From IMG/VR virus record IMGVR_UViG_2565956713_000001: a stretch of 64,000 nucleotides of DNA, one strand, 5' to 3'. This document shows, piece after piece, positions 2,176-58,861 of this stretch; position 1 is the stretch's first letter; each line of letters starts with the position of its first letter. The position numbers and the translations under genes are program-made. The notes beneath the pieces were generated by a model that ran no database searches, had not been told where the DNA came from, and saw only the letters and a list, made by a program, of their open reading frames with translations. This DNA comes from a virus (taxonomy: Duplodnaviria; Heunggongvirae; Uroviricota; Caudoviricetes).

Positions 2176-3605
2176 TCCTCCTCATACGAAATATTGAAGG
2201 TGGAGTTTCCTGTATCCAGATAAACGAAATCGTAAAAGCCGTTGGACTCATTCCACTCGACAAACTCCAGATAAAAGTCGCGGAAATAGCCCAACGTTTC
2301 GATAAACGCCCAAACGTCTTTTTTCTTAATCAGGATGTACTTTCCGACGCGGTTCGGATCAAAGAAAGTTGAGTCGCGCCCAAATTTTGTTTCCAGTGCC
2401 GACTTCAGCTCATCGGTCACGTTCTCAATGGTCAGGCTTGCCGATATCCGTCCGGTGATGGTTATCTTAAATGGTAGTTTTCTGACCTCTTTATAAGAGA
2501 ATTTCTTGTTCAGTTCATTCGGTACCTTCTTAAAGGCAGTCAGGATCATTTCTTCAAGCTCTGACTGGCTTTTATTTGGATGCCATCCTGAAATAAATAT
2601 CTTATTGATATTCTGAACATTATAAGCACCATCTAATTTCTCTTGCTGGCCTTCGCCCCATGCCTTTACCCAGGACAGCCCCGGGATGTTACGAACCAGA
2701 AAATACGTATAGTCCCCGCCCCATACAACCTGATCATCATAGGCAAGGTAATATTGTGCACGGTTACGTGTGATCTCCGTTGTTTCAGCATCGGTACCTG
2801 CGGTTATAGGTGTCGTTGTCTTAACTGAAATCAAATTAGCTAAATTAGCCGCAGAATCGACAGGCGTCAGGTTTTGGCCAGCAACCAGGGTTATATCGCC
2901 GTTGGTGCACCATACCTTAAGCGTAATTGTCGAGCCTTCTGGCGGTATTTGCCCAATTAGCCCATCGCCGAATCGAACACCCAACTGTTCGGATGGTTTA
3001 TAAAACTCAACGTAGACCTGGCTTTTACTACCAGCTAACCGGAACATTGTGCTGGAAGACCACTGCGTGGTCTTACCATCGGTCGTCACGAATACTTCCA
3101 GCTTATAGCAGACAGCAGTGAGAGCCTTTGATAACACGACTTCCAGAAATTCTTTGGCTGCCGTAACGGTATATGTCACCTCCTGGATTTCCAACTGTGC
3201 CACTTCTACCGTACCGGTGCCGTCAACCAACCTGCATACATCCATAGTCATGTAAGGGTACTGGTCGTCAGATATTAAAGGCGTGTTTTTGGGGATTACC
3301 GCTGGAGCATCTTCACTTGTGGCTGTGATCTCAACCATCCCGGATGACGGTGTTGGCTTGGTACCAACGTAACTATTCGTTTCTGCCGCTGCCAGGATAG
3401 AGGAACGCCGCGTCGCGGTCGATATAAAGCCTTCAGCCAGTGCCGCATCGGCATACTGAAAGCACCTGTAGACAATCTGGGTAATAAACAATGTCAGCAT
3501 CGAGACAAATTGAGAGCCGACAAACTTCGACCAGAATGAATCTTTCTCGACAAGCTCTTCAAACTCTGCACGAATACTGTCTTTAGTCGGTGTTGTTTTA
3601 CTCAT
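2172..3605 (-). CDS. baseplate J-like protein (putative)
   Basis: 477-aa ORF following a gp25-like gene, the usual W-J-I baseplate order; overlapping stop/start codons. Confidence 0.4.
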   Translation of the reverse strand: MSKTTPTKDSIRAEFEELVEKDSFWSKFVGSQFVSMLTLFITQIVYRCFQYADAALAEGFISTATRRSSILAAAETNSYVGTKPTPSSGMVEITATSEDAPAVIPKNTPLISDDQYPYMTMDVCRLVDGTGTVEVAQLEIQEVTYTVTAAKEFLEVVLSKALTAVCYKLEVFVTTDGKTTQWSSSTMFRLAGSKSQVYVEFYKPSEQLGVRFGDGLIGQIPPEGSTITLKVWCTNGDITLVAGQNLTPVDSAANLANLISVKTTTPITAGTDAETTEITRNRAQYYLAYDDQVVWGGDYTYFLVRNIPGLSWVKAWGEGQQEKLDGAYNVQNINKIFISGWHPNKSQSELEEMILTAFKKVPNELNKKFSYKEVRKLPFKITITGRISASLTIENVTDELKSALETKFGRDSTFFDPNRVGKYILIKKKDVWAFIETLGYFRDFYLEFVEWNESNGFYDFVYLDTGNSTFNISYEEE

Positions 3606-43447: not shown

Positions 43448-44121
43448 TGGCACCCACAATTTATCACCGTATCGACGGTACCAAATACAGGAATGTCTGG
43501 GTTGTTGGTGATCTGCATGGTTGCTACACCAGACTGATGTCCGAACTCCATCGTGTGGATTTTGACCCGGCGCAGGATTTACTGATATCGGTCGGCGACC
43601 TTATCGATCGCGGTACTGAAAATGTCGAATGTCTGGAACTATTGCAGATGCCCTGGTTCAGGGCAGTGATGGGGAACCATGAGCGGCTGATGATTGATGC
43701 GTTAAGTCCAGATGGCAACGTGAATAACTGGCTAATGAATGGCGGACAATGGTTCTTCATGCTGGACACTGATCAGGAAATATTAGCCTGGACGCTGGTG
43801 GAGCTGGTAAAGCGTCTGCCCTATATCATTGAGTTGAACACCGGGCAAGAAACTATCGTTATAGCCCATGCCGACTATCCGGATAATGAATACCAATTCG
43901 GTAAGGAGGTACCGCTTTTCAACGTTGTCTGGGCGCGCGAGCGTATCAGTGATTCGATGGATGATATTGGTGGCGAAATTTCGGGCGCAGATCGTTTTAT
44001 CTTTGGTCACACTCCGGTGAAAAGCCCGAAGACATTCTGGAATCAGCAGTATATCGACACTGGTGCCGTATTTTGCGGAAACCTGACATTGATGAAAGTG
44101 AAAGGTGATGGTGCAGCATGA
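43429..44121 (+). CDS. Ser/Thr protein phosphatase (lambda-PP-type metallophosphatase)
   Basis: GDLHGC, GDLIDRG and GNHE metallophosphoesterase motifs; 230 aa. Confidence 0.8.
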
Positions 44122-44819
44122 AGATTGCTTTAGTTCTTCGCTCTGGTGGTGACTATAACGCTTCCGATGTGCAGTGGCTGGTTAATCAACTGCCAAAAGA
44201 CTATGAAATTATTTGCCTGACAGACCTGAAGTGTTTACATGTACCTGGCGTCAAAGTTATCCCATTGATCAACCAGTGGCAAAAGTGCCGTGGCTGGTGG
44301 GCGAAAATCGAGTTGTTCCGACCGGATATAACCGATGATCTGTTCTATCTGGATTTGGACACGGTTATTGCCGGTGATATACGCCCAATCCTAGAGCATC
44401 CACCAACCAGCTTCACCATGCTTAGGGATTTTTACCATCCACAATATCGTGGCAGCGGTGCCCTGTGGATACCAAATAGTGTTAAAGCGCATATCTGGAG
44501 TTCATTCTGGCAAGATCCGGAAGGTTGGATTTCTCGTTGTGTCACTACTGAGTGCTGGGGTGACCAGGGGTTCTTACGAAAGGTTATGGGCGATGATACA
44601 CCAGCATTTCAGGATCTGTATCCAGGATGGTTTGTAAGTTACAAGGCCGATGTTGTGGAACCTGGTTCAAAATATGCGAGCGCGCGTTACTCCAGGGGGA
44701 ATGGGGCATTACCAAAAGACTGCCGAATAATCTTTTTCCACGGCAAACCGCGACCTCGCGAAGTGTCAGAGGATTGGCTTCCCCTTATCAGCTCATTTTT
44801 TGAGCGAGAATCAGAATAA
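44118..44819 (+). CDS. glycosyltransferase-like protein (GT-A DxD-type, tentative)
   Basis: 233 aa, translationally coupled to the phosphatase; [12 protein letters not shown] motif. Confidence 0.3.
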
Positions 44820-44820
44820 T

Positions 44821-44886
44821 ATTGCTCTAATAATTCCATATTTTTAAAACGTGATGTACACTCATCACGTTTTTTATTAGAGCAAT
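44821..44886. promoter_or_regulatory. bipartite C1 operator pair flanking a 10-bp perfect palindrome
   Basis: ATTGCTCTAATAATTCC (+) and ATTGCTCTAATAAAAAA (reverse, 44870-44886) flank AAAACGTGATG-tacactc-ATCACGTTTT. Confidence 0.65.
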
Positions 44887-44900
44887 CTACAAGGTGCACT

Positions 44901-45119
44901 ATGTGGCCATTCCGACGGAAATATCACTACTGGCTGATCGCCTTTGTTACGCCGACCGGCGGTATCAGGCATGTCATCACCAGGTATCGCAACAAGAGAC
45001 TCACCTTAGCCAGAATTTTACAGGCTGCCATAGGTGAGGGACTGGATACAAATTGCGTAGTCCTTCCTCCTTCATACTTAGGAAAAATGACCGAAGCACA
45101 AGCTAATACGGAACTTTGA
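44901..45119 (+). CDS. hypothetical small protein (C1-controlled operon)
   Basis: 72-aa ORF just downstream of the bipartite operator. Confidence 0.3.
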   Translation: MWPFRRKYHYWLIAFVTPTGGIRHVITRYRNKRLTLARILQAAIGEGLDTNCVVLPPSYLGKMTEAQANTEL

Positions 45120-45120
45120 A

Positions 45121-46383
45121 ATGATCACTTCAGCACAAAACCAATCAATCGAAAATGTATCTATCCCTGACGTCCTGAATGCCGGTATCCCGGCCATTAT
45201 CCAGAACATCCGGGCCGCGCAACGCCGCGTTAGTTGTGATGACCTCACAGCGCGTTTTTTTGATAATGCGGTTCAGTCAGCGGAGATGCTTCACGCACAG
45301 CTTATTGATGTTTATAACGCAGAAGCTGATAGCCATAACTCCCTGGTAGATGCAGCTGAAAATATGCAGTTGGATCTCGGTCTGAAGGGTAAAGAAATTG
45401 AAGAGCTTCAGCTACAAATTGAACATTTGAAACGCCAGCAACAGGACGCGATCGACGATGCGACGCATGACGCCAACCAGCGTGCTGATAATGCCGAACG
45501 TATAAGCATTGAGCTGGAAACAAAACTCAATGAAATGACCGCGATGGTTGAACTGCGGAACTCACAGATTTCAACGCTAAAATCTCAATATAAAGAGATC
45601 ATGAAACTTGATCCTTTTAACCTTGAGAAACGCTATAACAAAGCTAAAAGCGAGCGACAGGAACTGCGTAAGCAGGTCGCCGACCTTAACCAACAGCTCA
45701 AAAAAACTATTAAAGATGCAAGCGAAGCGCGCGTGGCATTTGCTAATAAAAAAGCAGAGGTTACCGCGCTGGTTAATGAGAATGCCAAATTTGCGACGCT
45801 CAAGAAGGAAATGTATGGCATTACTGAGCGCCGTTTCCCTGCAAGCAAACTTCATCCGACGTTAGGGCAAATCTCCTTCTTCCCGCGCCTCCTGGCTTAT
45901 GGGATCTCATCGCCTAAAGAGTTCAATAACGAGCGTCCTTATATCGTTTCTAAGCTGGACTTTGCTTATCAGTTCTGCTGCGACATGGGCTATGCCATTG
46001 ATATCCGGATCAACGAATGGTTGATGCCAAACTTCCAGCCGTTGGCCATTTTCCGCGAGTTCCAGCCGGAAGGTTGGGTAGAGTTCTTCCATGAATTGAT
46101 CTGTAAAGAGATGGAAAGCCGCCGCCCGGAACTGGTCCGTCGAGTTGAGTGGGCGCAAGAGGTTATGTTGGCAGAGGCAGAGCTGCCGTTCGAACCGGAA
46201 TTTATTGATGATCTGGCAGCTAAAGGGCTGCATACCCTGTTTGATGTGGTTACCCGCCGTCATGAGCAGTTGGTTGTCGAATTGGGTTTAGAGGAAACAG
46301 CGGCAAGAAGACTTCTCGATGTTTGCTATGCACGTAGCGATGCATGGGAAAAAGAGAACGGCGGCACTATTTACGTTCGCTGA
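45121..46383 (+). CDS. coiled-coil protein of unknown function
   Basis: 420 aa with clean start; ~230-aa N-terminal coiled coil and a globular C-terminal domain. Confidence 0.4.
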   Translation: MITSAQNQSIENVSIPDVLNAGIPAIIQNIRAAQRRVSCDDLTARFFDNAVQSAEMLHAQLIDVYNAEADSHNSLVDAAENMQLDLGLKGKEIEELQLQIEHLKRQQQDAIDDATHDANQRADNAERISIELETKLNEMTAMVELRNSQISTLKSQYKEIMKLDPFNLEKRYNKAKSERQELRKQVADLNQQLKKTIKDASEARVAFANKKAEVTALVNENAKFATLKKEMYGITERRFPASKLHPTLGQISFFPRLLAYGISSPKEFNNERPYIVSKLDFAYQFCCDMGYAIDIRINEWLMPNFQPLAIFREFQPEGWVEFFHELICKEMESRRPELVRRVEWAQEVMLAEAELPFEPEFIDDLAAKGLHTLFDVVTRRHEQLVVELGLEETAARRLLDVCYARSDAWEKENGGTIYVR

Positions 46384-46456
46384 TAGTTACAGTGTCACTT
46401 TTAATGCTGGTGGAGTGCGTCCCACCAGCATTTTTTTCGTCCAATGAGGAGGGCAT

Positions 46457-46963
46457 TTGAGTATTTTCAATAAACACGCACACCAGGAACGTCCGTATAT
46501 CGTCATAGTAGATATTGATGGGACGATATCGGAGGCAACGGAAGACAGACTGCATTTGCTTCCGCCACCAGGTAAAGGTGCATTAACAAAGGACTGGAAC
46601 GAGTTTAATCTCGCCTGTGACACCGATACTCCCATCACTCCAGTTATTGATATGGTGCGCCAGTTATTTAACGTTTACACGGTCTGGTTTGTAACCGGGC
46701 GCTGTGAGATCGCAAGGGATAAAACACGAGCTTGGCTGCGGAAGTACGTAACAAACGGGGCTGAGCCTTTGCTATCTATGCGTCCTGCCACCGATGACAG
46801 AAATGACGGCCCAGCAAAGATTGATCTCCTGAAGAAAATTGGTCTAAATAAAATTGCGTTCGCGCTGGAAGATAAGATTGAAGTGGCGCGTGTTTTCAGG
46901 AGTCACGGCGTACTTACGTTAATGGTCAGGGAGTATGAAAACGCGCTTCTCCATCAACAATAA
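46457..46963 (+). CDS. HAD-superfamily phosphatase-like protein
   Basis: 168 aa; N-terminal DIDGT motif. Confidence 0.45.
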   Translation: MSIFNKHAHQERPYIVIVDIDGTISEATEDRLHLLPPPGKGALTKDWNEFNLACDTDTPITPVIDMVRQLFNVYTVWFVTGRCEIARDKTRAWLRKYVTNGAEPLLSMRPATDDRNDGPAKIDLLKKIGLNKIAFALEDKIEVARVFRSHGVLTLMVREYENALLHQQ

Positions 46964-46979
46964 TTGCTCTAATAAATCT
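46963..46979 (+). promoter_or_regulatory. C1 repressor operator (ATTGCTCTAATAAATCT)
   Basis: 16/17 consensus match overlapping the stop codon of the HAD-like gene; followed by TTTTTAAAAC. Confidence 0.7.
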
Positions 46980-47157
46980 TGATTTTTAAAACAGAGAAAG
47001 TGAAAATAAAAACATGCCGTAAGGCGCGGCATGTATCCAATCAATCACAGGAGCTGAAAATATGAACACGGCATTCAAAATCATTATGGCCGCGATCTAT
47101 TTCTGGCTGTTCTCTATCACTTTTGGCGGCATCGTCGCGCATGGGTAAGGGGGATGC

Positions 47158-47883
47158 ATGAAAGGCGAAGTGAAAGAGCGCGGCATGATTTTCAACGATG
47201 AGATGGTCCGAGCCATCCTCGAAGGAAGGAAAACGCAGACGCGGCGGATAATGAAAAATCAGCCTGCGGAAGTTGGTCCAGAAGCACCAGTGATGGTTAG
47301 GGAAATTGGTGCAGGTTTTCAGTGGTACGGGGCTGATGGTGTAAGCAGTGTTTTCAATTGCCCCTTTGGTATCGTCGGCGATCGAATTTGGGTTCGTGAA
47401 ACATGGGCGATATTAGGCAATGAAGATGGTTGCAGTGTGGACTGGAACGACAACCTTTGTCGTGGCGATGAGAAGAACGCAGCAAGGATTTATCGGGCCA
47501 GTTGTGAGCAAAAGCCTGGTGATTACGGTTTATGGTCGATACCCGATGATGCCGACTGGAAACCTCACACTGTGAATGAAAAGTTTGATGGTGGGTGGCG
47601 TCCATCAATTCACATGCCGCGATGGGCATCACGCATCCTGTTGGAAATTACCAACGTGCGCGTTGAGCGGTTGAACGATATCAGCGAATGCGATGCAAGG
47701 GATGAGGGCGTTCCGCCTGCTGGAAGTTTGCTTCCTGATCACCCGGGAACATTCCTTACTCCCAAGGGGGATTTCGCAATGGCCAAGGTTGCGTTCCAGC
47801 GCCTGTGGGAATCCATCTACGGCGAAGAAAGCTGGAGTGCTAATCCCTGGGTTTGGGTAATCGAGTTTGAGCGTATTCAGTAG
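47158..47883 (+). CDS. ASCH-like domain protein (tentative)
   Basis: 241 aa; N-terminal MVRAILEGRKTQTRR resembles the ASCH motif. Confidence 0.35.
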   Translation: MKGEVKERGMIFNDEMVRAILEGRKTQTRRIMKNQPAEVGPEAPVMVREIGAGFQWYGADGVSSVFNCPFGIVGDRIWVRETWAILGNEDGCSVDWNDNLCRGDEKNAARIYRASCEQKPGDYGLWSIPDDADWKPHTVNEKFDGGWRPSIHMPRWASRILLEITNVRVERLNDISECDARDEGVPPAGSLLPDHPGTFLTPKGDFAMAKVAFQRLWESIYGEESWSANPWVWVIEFERIQ

Positions 47884-58844: not shown

Positions 58845-58861
58845 ATTGCTCTAATGTATTG
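58845..58861 (+). promoter_or_regulatory. C1-operator-like site (ATTGCTCTAATGTATTG)
   Basis: 12/17 match, with the first 11 bp exact, directly upstream of lpa. Confidence 0.5.

Follow-up and report, generated by a model that had tools for sequence, protein, structure and literature searches.

A probable intrinsic terminator overlaid on the C1-controlled pmgR–pmgS promoter of a P1/P7-type phage-plasmid

What is the role of a palindrome lying between two inverted C1 operators, ahead of a small ORF and a long coiled-coil gene? The locus belongs to a 64,000-nucleotide (nt) stretch of viral DNA (hereafter, the window) from a P1/P7-type phage-plasmid, and sequence comparison shows this part of it to be 99.1% identical to P7 and 98.7% identical to P1. 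The operators, the two genes and a predicted promoter, PpmgR, are annotated at orthologous positions in the P1 (AF234172) and P7 (AF503408) records. The operator pair is the annotated Op86a/Op86b (OpmgRa/OpmgRb; Op(sht a/b) in AF503408). The 72- and 420-amino-acid ORFs noticed downstream when the letters alone were read (hereafter, the sequence-only reading) are pmgR (44901–45119, plus strand; P7 shtA, PHROG 3177) and pmgS (45121–46383, plus strand; P7 shtB), with 1 nt between the pmgR stop and the pmgS start and a ribosome-binding site for pmgR, AAGGTG, at 44891–44896. Annotation and sequence together establish these identities. The proposal that the sites are C1 operators likewise agrees with the depositors of both records, who annotate them as controlling expression of pmgR and pmgS. 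Because operators, genes and C1 control are already stated in GenBank, the finding has little discovery value in these respects; it is real, but largely ordinary.

The 13-nt motif ATTGCTCTAATAA occurs exactly at 44821–44833 on the plus strand and at 44874–44886 on the minus strand, as expected from the proposed inverted arrangement around the palindrome, and a repeat search of the window returns the pair as a 13-nt inverted repeat, 100% complementary, with its copies 40 nt apart. Allowing up to two mismatches, the window has 14 copies of the 13-mer where 1.75 are expected, a count reached by none of 100 shuffles. The full sites are Op86a (ATTGCTCTAATAATTCC, 44821–44837, plus strand), whose P1 and P7 orthologues are protein_bind features for ‘phage repressor C1’, and Op86b (ATTGCTCTAATAAAAAA, 44870–44886, minus strand), also annotated in both. 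Each agrees with the asymmetric 17-bp operator consensus ATTGCTCTAATAAATTT in 14 of its 17 positions and contains the 13-nt core exactly; the consensus, and the roles of the corepressor Lxc and of Coi, are from PMC8546580. Both sites are thus C1 operators, with C1 binding cited through annotation. A literature text search for Op86, Op88 and Op72 returned unrelated papers only.

The sequence-only reading noted an element that also follows the operator at 46963. That operator is Op88 (OpmgT, 46963–46979, plus strand; annotated in P1), and ATTTTTAAAAC does follow both Op86a (44840–44850) and Op88 (46982–46992) in the same register, from operator position 20. The element is present but not special: at least six C1 operators in the window have a T-run followed by TA(A/T) at this register. 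TTTTTAAAAC belongs to the general make-up of C1-controlled promoters and does not link the sites at 44821 and 46963.

The palindrome itself has 11-bp arms, AAAACGTGATG (44846–44856) and CATCACGTTTT (44863–44873), around the loop TACACT (44857–44862). It is perfect, as the sequence-only reading had it, but the spacer is 6 nt, not the 7 nt given there with a C omitted. The 11-bp stem contains four G–C pairs and is followed by T6; its RNA fold has an energy of −15 kcal/mol (z = −5.7), equalled by none of 200 shuffles. The full fold adds an operator–operator helix only, and the A-rich 3′ end of Op86b complements the T-run of the hairpin. Folding, together with compensatory changes in relatives, marks 44846–44875 (plus strand) as a probable intrinsic terminator for transcripts from pmgQ, with a G+C core at 44850–44856/44863–44869 and the run TTTTTT at 44870–44875. 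The core stem alone is modest (7 bp, −8.5 kcal/mol), and 7 of the 8 nt that follow it are U.

Its position is that of an element closing a co-directional unit, with upstream genes and promoters on the same strand. LPpmgL, Op82, PpmgN and Op83 drive pmgL–pmgQ, and the last gene of this unit, pmgQ (44118–44819, plus strand; P7 hdmD, an ORF annotated in P1 and P7 and assigned to a glycosyltransferase PHROG), has its stop codon 27 nt before the hairpin. The palindrome is annotated in neither the P1 nor the P7 record, and Rfam gave no match at E ≤ 1 in 44000–47500. A consensus terminator scan of the window did not list it, although it listed the hairpin after pmgS, probably because the longest stem absorbs four Ts and leaves the tail below the scan’s T threshold. 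A consensus promoter scan with a 9/12 threshold listed no PpmgR. As neither scan listed its target, we used folding and comparative evidence instead. The hairpin after pmgS (46403–46437, plus strand; 11 bp, −18 kcal/mol, then TTTTT), found by terminator scan, repeat search and folding and likewise unannotated in both records, is the end of the pmgR–pmgS unit.

We compared five lineages, the other four having PmgS proteins 53–69% identical, with pair counts taken from a gapless alignment. The stems differ yet pair in all five, pairing being kept by double compensatory changes, by G·U pairs and, in one case, by a shifted register. P1 has CGTGATG/CATCACG; L136 and L061 have CATGGTG/CACCATG; JK004 has CATGGTG/CGCCATG, with a T·G pair; L134 has CGGCATG/CATGCCG in a shifted register, its symmetry centre moved by 1.5 nt; and L129 has GGTGTGGTG/CGCCACATC. 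Of the cells counted, 94% are paired, compared with 33–67% when the partner is slid. Four pairs differ in both of their bases, compared with 1.2 for shuffles (6 of 500 reached 4), a count drawn from the small sample of about five related lineages. Around these three to four unrelated stem sequences, the operators are identical or differ by one or two bases. The T6 run is kept in four of the five lineages, and three of its positions differ from the AAATTT of the operator consensus. The loop always reads TAnnnT (TACACT, TATCAT or TATTAT). A metagenome pattern scan yielded mostly chance matches in marine coding sequence, and no stem types beyond those already seen.

These data bear on whether the palindrome has a function at all. 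About a dozen perfect close inverted repeats of 11–12 nt occur in the 64-kb window, and among P1-type copies a single-site polymorphism is about as likely to break a pair as to turn it into G·U. Many pair-breaking single-copy variants are tolerated. These observations would fit a repeat of accidental or historical origin in the inter-operator spacer. However, the folding z-score against shuffles and the survival of pairing where the sequence has been replaced, in lineages with PmgS identity as low as 53%, make a functionless palindrome highly improbable. Among the single-site variants, G·U changes favour the plus strand (about 8 events versus 3), which is suggestive only and is not used as proof.

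The same comparison separates structure from sequence. The sequence-only reading had offered a second protein-binding site as one option, and a second dimeric regulator over the −10, perhaps the operon’s own helix–hairpin–helix (HhH) protein PmgS, can be imagined: the 11-bp inverted repeat is perfect and centred on the promoter, imperfect half-sites such as TGGTG/TGGCG in JK004 could suit a protein, the stem sequence is particular to each PmgS lineage, and PmgS carries a DNA-binding-type domain. Relatives, however, replace the stem sequence but keep its pairing, so that complementarity is conserved and base identity is not. With three to four unrelated stems between near-identical operators, a co-regulator would have needed repeated changes of specificity, and the shifted symmetry centre in L134 also counts against it. 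The contacts that (HhH)2 domains make are in general to the DNA backbone, with no sequence specificity, and no second regulator is annotated in P1. We therefore regard such a site as distinctly unlikely.

The other option named there, a terminator or attenuator hairpin, fares better, and the comparative data favour the terminator. One lineage gives some reason for caution: in L129 and L131 the stem is kept, even strengthened, and the T-run is lost (CTTGATT), so that pairing there is conserved without a canonical terminator tail. In every lineage, moreover, the arms flank the −10-like loop exactly. Both features would suit a non-terminating role of the hairpin in the upstream mRNA, whether as a 3′ stabiliser or as a processing site, or a DNA cruciform that exposes the −10. 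Against this stand the U6 directly after the G+C core in four of five lineages and the joint strengthening of stem and U-run in L134; the G·U (T·G) pairs of JK004, L129 and L103 would further weaken a cruciform. We rate these non-terminating roles as unlikely, and retain the terminator as the preferred reading.

Where, then, does pmgR transcription start? The P1 record places PpmgR, labelled ‘predicted’, at 44822–44850 on the plus strand, with a −35 of TTGCTC (44822–44827), a 17-bp spacer and a −10 of TAAAAC (44845–44850). This −10 lacks the final T and becomes TGAAGC in JK004 and TAAAGG in L129. An alternative candidate (44834–44862, plus strand) pairs a weak −35, TTCCAT or TCCATA (44834–44840), with the hairpin loop TACACT as −10, for a predicted start near 44869. 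Of the promoter candidates it alone occurs in all five lineages, at 7–9 of 12 positions: 7 in the window, with a poor −35 in P1 itself, and 8–9 in relatives. Within the window, both this candidate and that of the P1 record stay below 9 of 12. The loop occupies operator positions 37–42, the place of the −10 of Plpa/P94. The −10 predicted in the P1 record is thus not conserved, whereas the hairpin loop at the Plpa-type position is. Either candidate would start the pmgR mRNA within or after the hairpin.

A start upstream of the palindrome would make the hairpin a leader attenuator, its stem and U-run prematurely terminating its own operon unless prevented. A −10-like AATAAT does lie at operator position 9 in all lineages, predicting a start near position 21, before the hairpin, and the hairpin with U6 is terminator-shaped. 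But AATAAT falls within the operator, which forces its conservation, and the −35 hexamers paired with it (GAGAAT, GCGAAT, AAGAAT) are poor, none of them being TTG-like. Neither an alternative antiterminator fold nor a leader peptide is apparent, and both genes are well expressed at 10 min by RNA-seq. An attenuator of this kind is accordingly improbable. A late, Lpa-dependent promoter was rejected: the annotated −22 boxes of LP26 and LPpmgL (TAGTCATTT and AAATGACTA) are unlike the palindrome. Reiterative transcription at T6 just after a +1 near 44869 might be imagined by analogy with pyrBI/codBA-type control, but T6 is absent in L129.

Published RNA-seq data from P1vir (preprint supplement; values not length-normalised) give log2 fold changes at 10 min of 5.9 for pmgQ, 8.0 for pmgR, 8.2 for pmgS and 5.5 for pap. 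The step from pmgQ to pmgR indicates an early-active promoter between them, and the level falls from pmgS to pap. The unit is thus already induced at 10 min, in line with the early expression suggested from sequence. A literature search found no Term-seq or 3′-end data for P1.

Our preferred reading, to which we give somewhat better than even confidence, is that the palindrome before the pmgR–pmgS operon is an intrinsic terminator of the upstream unit, overlaid on a promoter clamped by C1; terminator function and a −10 within the loop are both inferred. In the prophage, C1, helped by its corepressor Lxc, would bind the two 17-bp asymmetric inverted operators on either side of the core promoter, and with Op86a over the −35 region and Op86b over about +1 to +18, RNA polymerase would be shut out. 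Once C1 is inactivated, the promoter would fire early. The RNA hairpin and U-run would form only in transcripts arriving from the upstream pmgN–pmgQ unit, itself driven by a late promoter and C1-controlled promoters, and most likely terminates them. The next promoter would be overlaid on this terminator, with the loop TACACT probably serving as its −10 and the pmgR mRNA starting at the 3′ edge of the stem. With a G+C core of just 7 bp (−8.5 kcal/mol), the hairpin would at most end a fraction of these transcripts. The sequence-only reading named, as one outcome that would refute it, a palindrome whose sole role is to terminate the upstream operon; this outcome is close to our best explanation and leaves C1 control of the promoter untouched.

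The suggestion of an anti-host function is not supported: pmgR is essential and acts in morphogenesis, its deletion leaving heads and tails unjoined (PMC9024508), and pmgS is dispensable for plaque formation (PMC10695390). PmgS comprises long helices (residues 15–231), a conserved central region (about 240–350) and a C-terminal region (about 350–412; nt 46168–46356) with fold similarity to solved (HhH)2 domains. This (HhH)2 domain resembles the N-terminal domain of RAD51 and the αCTD of RpoA. The window’s own PmgS has no Pfam match above threshold. Two distant family members do: the L007 protein matches RNA_pol_A_CTD (28.4 bits, cutoff 23.8) and P0029 matches HHH_5 (32.0 bits, cutoff 27). At E ≤ 0.01, HHH_5 is found in 16 of the 51 family members and RNA_pol_A_CTD in 11 of 51, and the family profile gives 4.7e-8 against the RAD51 N-terminal domain. 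Among genome contigs, relatives were 99%-identical copies only, and a BFVD structure search gave no significant full-length match. A bolder reading, which we consider improbable, is that PmgS is no head or sheath component but an early, C1-controlled coiled-coil protein that uses its RpoA-αCTD/NusA-AR/RAD51-N-like (HhH)2 domain to engage either DNA or the transcription machinery of the host. Its function would then be anti-host or transcription-modulating, roughly as first guessed, and among its targets might be the terminator–promoter hairpin ahead of pmgR, the stem of which varies from one PmgS lineage to another.

For annotators of P1 and related phage-plasmids, the locus offers three modest points, concerning the hairpin, the −10 and the PmgS label. 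An evolutionarily conserved hairpin with a U-run, so far unannotated, probably ends the pmgN–pmgQ unit exactly atop the next promoter. The −10 hexamer predicted in the P1 record is not conserved; the loop, at the Plpa-type −10 position, is. The label ‘PmgS-like head morphogenesis’ is without support; the protein so named is dispensable for plaques and carries an (HhH)2 domain.

Set against known systems, the region is orthologous to Op86a/b of P1 and Op(sht a/b) of P7 (98.7–99.1% identical), with equal positions, orientation, genes and role; nothing of substance differs, and the hairpin is absent from both records’ annotation. With the bivalent P1 operators (for example Oc1ab/Op99ab; an overlapping pair, window 30757–30794) it shares two inverted C1 sites at one promoter, but the bivalent sites overlap each other, whereas the Op86 17-mers are 32 bp apart, bracket the promoter and are annotated as two monovalent operators. 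At P1 Olpa/Plpa (Op94/P94), the promoter of the late activator gene lpa, which the P1 record lists without ‘predicted’, the operator just overlaps the −35 at positions 15–20, followed by a T-rich spacer and a −10 at 37–42, where the Op86a loop hexamer also falls. Plpa has one operator and no hairpin, and its hexamers, TTGCTA and TATTAT, are much better than the TCCATA and TACACT of the loop candidate in P1.

Compared with other (HhH)2 proteins, namely the N-terminal domain of RAD51/RadA, the C-terminal domain of the RNA polymerase alpha subunit and the acidic repeats of NusA, PmgS adds a coiled coil of about 220 residues and, unlike them, a central conserved region without recognisable relatives. 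Like intrinsic terminators of Escherichia coli and its phages, including the A-tract/U-tract ‘bidirectional’ types, the hairpin is a G+C-containing stem-loop preceded by an A-run and followed at once by a U-run. It differs from Rho-independent terminators in its short, weak core, in being overlaid on the next promoter and operator, and in the one lineage without a U-run; it resembles them in following the stop codon by 27 nt and in a stem that evolves by compensatory change.

The region ahead of pmgR and pmgS contains two inverted C1 operators, Op86a and Op86b, which share ATTGCTCTAATAA at 44821-44833 (+) and 44874-44886 (-); an inverted-repeat search recovers them as a perfect 13-nt repeat with arms 40 nt apart. 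The C1 operator motif is strongly enriched in the window, with 14 sites at ≤2 mismatches against 1.75 expected, a lower bound because the 13-mer search at this threshold overlooked the equivalent of Op83/Oppp (ATATGCACTAATTAATT at 42104-42120 (-)). Across window positions 44000-47200 the identity is 99.1% with phage P7 and 98.7% with phage P1, and hundreds of P1-like plasmids match here as well. The P1 record AF234172 annotates OpmgRa, the former Op86a, as a 'monovalent C1-controlled operator' that 'controls expression of pmgR and pmgS', and likewise annotates OpmgRb as Op86b; the counterparts in the P7 record AF503408 are Op(sht a/b), shtA and shtB. The C1 operators of P1, 22 in number, follow the asymmetric consensus ATTGCTCTAATAAATTT, and C1 binding is enhanced by Lxc and C1 itself inactivated by Coi (PMC8546580). 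The sequence-only reading had described two inverted C1 operators around a palindrome, controlling a small ORF and a coiled-coil gene. The sequence is as described and the control is so annotated in the P1 and P7 records, so that the observation and the core of its interpretation were already on record: the locus is the known Op86a/b-pmgR-pmgS region, the finding is real and its outline correct.

Between the operators lies the palindrome AAAACGTGATG-TACACT-CATCACGTTTT (44846-44873), followed by two further Ts, with 11-nt arms and a folding energy of -15 kcal/mol (z = -5.7); its loop has 6 nt, not the 7 first assigned to the spacer. IMG/VR, Logan, ENA and NCBI contigs and phage JK004 supplied operator-to-operator stretches for comparison. 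Among P1-type copies the differences are single substitutions at scattered sites. In four other lineages the stem is replaced, with operators identical or 1-2 bases off and a retained spacing of 65-66 nt: AAAACATGGTG-TATCAT-CACCATGTTTT in contigs L136 and L061 (PmgS 69% identical), GAAGCATGGTG-TATCAT-CGCCATGTTTT with T·G and G·T pairs in JK004 (69%), CGGCATG...CATGCCG, richer in G+C and shifted in register by 1.5 nt, in L134 (63%), and GGTGTGGTG-TATTAT-CGCCACATC with two wobble pairs in L129 and L131 (53%). The hairpin holds the same position in all lineages, at -13 to -20 kcal/mol. Aligned without gaps, 18 distinct variants have 94% of cells paired, compared with 33-67% when the partner is slid. 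Both sides have changed in 4 pairs, where shuffles give 1.2 and 6 in 500 of them attain 4; as the sample is small and its sequences related, this compensatory evidence is supportive but short of conclusive. Complementarity is kept while the sequence changes, T·G pairs occur and one register is shifted; a nucleic-acid hairpin is thereby better supported than a site for a sequence-specific dimer, and the earlier suggestion of a second protein-binding site is disfavoured.

The hairpin appears to overlie the pmgR promoter. AF234172 predicts a sigma-70 promoter, PpmgR, with its -35 (TTGCTC) within Op86a and TAAAAC as -10; this -10 has decayed in JK004 (TGAAGC) and in L129 (TAAAGG). A relaxed -35/-10 scan finds one candidate common to every lineage, in which the hairpin loop (TACACT, TATCAT or TATTAT) is the -10, at positions 37-42 or 38-43 counted from the first base of Op86a or its equivalent, and the -35 lies at positions 14-21. 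It scores 9/12 in JK004, L134 and L129 (TTGATT-16-TATTAT), 8/12 in L136 and 7/12 in the window, and it shares the geometry of Plpa (former P94, for which the P1 record omits 'predicted'), with -35 TTGCTA at positions 15-20 and -10 TATTAT at 37-42. The PpmgR -10 is likely to lie in the loop.

This placement bears on whether the hairpin could be a terminator or an attenuator, as had been proposed. Attenuation of pmgR would have transcription start from the operator's own AATAAT, before the hairpin, which is improbable: the -35 paired with AATAAT is poor, and either other candidate start, within the loop (~44857) or on the stem's 3′ margin (~44869), leaves the complete hairpin only in RNA arriving from upstream. 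Termination fares better. TTTTTT directly follows the G+C core, which ends at 44869, and the T-run is retained in four of five lineages, L134 keeping it with a stronger stem; because of the T-run, the last three positions of Op86b (ATTGCTCTAATAAAAAA) deviate from the operator consensus. The stop of pmgQ, the last gene of the upstream unit, is 27 nt before the hairpin, and same-strand transcription does come in from upstream, driven by LPpmgL, a late promoter, and by PpmgL/PpmgN, which are C1-controlled. The core stem is weak (-8.5 kcal/mol; the clear terminator 3′ of pmgS reaches -18.1), a consensus terminator scan did not call the palindrome hairpin, and the L129 lineage retains the stem with the U-run lost. 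We consider that this conserved, so far unannotated hairpin probably terminates the upstream unit and overlies the promoter; self-attenuation is the less probable reading.

The element TTTTTAAAAC, noted earlier as shared with the operator Op88 at 46963, is indeed present there: ATTTTTAAAAC begins at operator position 20 after both Op86a and Op88. It is not special to them, as a T-run then TA(A/T) follows in the same register after at least six window operators (10860, 12531, 27486, 44821, 46963 and 62152). T5-6 plus TA(A/T) at positions 20-29 is also listed for the operator at 58845. In the P1 record the element is the predicted -10 of PpmgR and P2pmgT, and in Plpa the equivalent TTTCTTTAA falls in the spacer. 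It is a generic part of C1-controlled promoters, and may serve as a promoter spacer element, or else as a bend or an extended contact for C1/Lxc. The scan calls a hairpin at 47012-47034 (ACATGCCGCGCCTTACGGCATGT), located after Op88 and before the next ORF, as a terminator on the minus strand; read on the + strand, it would belong to the leader of the unit that Op88 controls.

The 72-aa ORF pmgR (44901-45119) and the 420-aa ORF pmgS (45121-46383) are 1 nt apart, followed in the P1 record by pap and then Op88. Published P1vir RNA-seq (WT log2FC, values without length normalisation; preprint 10.64898/2025.12.28.696737, supplement) gives 5.9, 8.0, 8.2 and 5.5 for pmgQ, pmgR, pmgS and pap at 10 min, and 8.1, 9.4, 10.0 and 8.1 at 20 min; the table columns before pmgQ and after pap read 6.1 and 8.9 at 10 min and 8.0 and 10.8 at 20 min. 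The rise at pmgR indicates an early-active promoter there. Given the fall between pmgS and pap (~2.7 log2 units at 10 min), simple co-transcription of pap with pmgR-pmgS is improbable; the fall fits a hairpin at 46403-46437, directly 3′ of the pmgS stop and unannotated in the P1 and P7 records, which has a perfect, G+C-rich stem of 11 bp and is followed by TTTTT. In a P1 deletion survey pmgR was essential, its deletion leaving unjoined heads and tails (PMC9024508). Deletion and CRISPRi both place pmgS and pap among the nonessential genes (PMC10695390). AF503408 names shtA for sheath structure and shtB for sheath contraction, and PHROGs passes on the label 'PmgS-like head morphogenesis'. Given the unjoined heads and tails, and normal plaques on pmgS deletion, the 'sheath' names look doubtful and the 'head morphogenesis' label unsupported.

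Residues 15-231 form long helices in the AF2 model of PmgS (mean pLDDT 72); the central region is poorly modelled yet strongly conserved, and the C-terminal domain is helical and modelled with confidence. The window protein has no match passing Pfam thresholds, but distant members exceed the cutoffs for RNA_pol_A_CTD (28.4 bits; cutoff 23.8) and HHH_5 (32.0; cutoff 27), and at E ≤ 0.01 these are matched by 11 and 16 of 51 members, respectively. A family profile built on these 51 members matches the RAD51 NTD (4.7e-8) and the RpoA aCTD (8.9e-7); the family is small, with 119 clusters among 1.84 billion representatives. By these matches PmgS carries a predicted (HhH)2 domain, from which we infer that it may bind DNA or the transcription machinery.

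Distant phage-plasmids whose PmgS is only 25-27% identical (Citrobacter pRHBSTW-00697_3 and one Logan contig) have different C1-like inverted repeats ahead of the pmgR-like gene, CCATACTAATT...AATTAGTATGG and AAGATACTAATTTAT...ATAAATTAGTATCTT; these are spaced by 17-20 bp, enclose a -10-like hexamer and contain no inner hairpin. The inverted operators CCATACTAATT and AAGATACTAATTTAT lie ahead of this gene in L006 (3127-3172) and L137 (2674-2720). Judged from these relatives, the inverted-operator clamp on the pmgR promoter predates the hairpin, and the comparison implies that repressor specificities diverged with the promoter-clamp layout conserved. In the distant relative Citrobacter pCF5125-2 (L007), a G+C-rich hairpin and T-run (GGGCTGCAGTGCGGCCC TTTTTT) at 3330-3360 lies ahead of the pmgS homologue; no flanking operator pair was noticed there on inspection.

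The window also contains two overlapping inverted C1 operators at 30757-30794 (ATTGCTCTAATAAATTTATTAGTGTAAT), the 'bivalent' operator type, whereas the Op86 pair is separated. Relative to the known P1/P7 annotation, the increments are small and sequence-based: the conserved hairpin as a probable terminator, the proposed -10 reassignment and the predicted (HhH)2 domain of PmgS.
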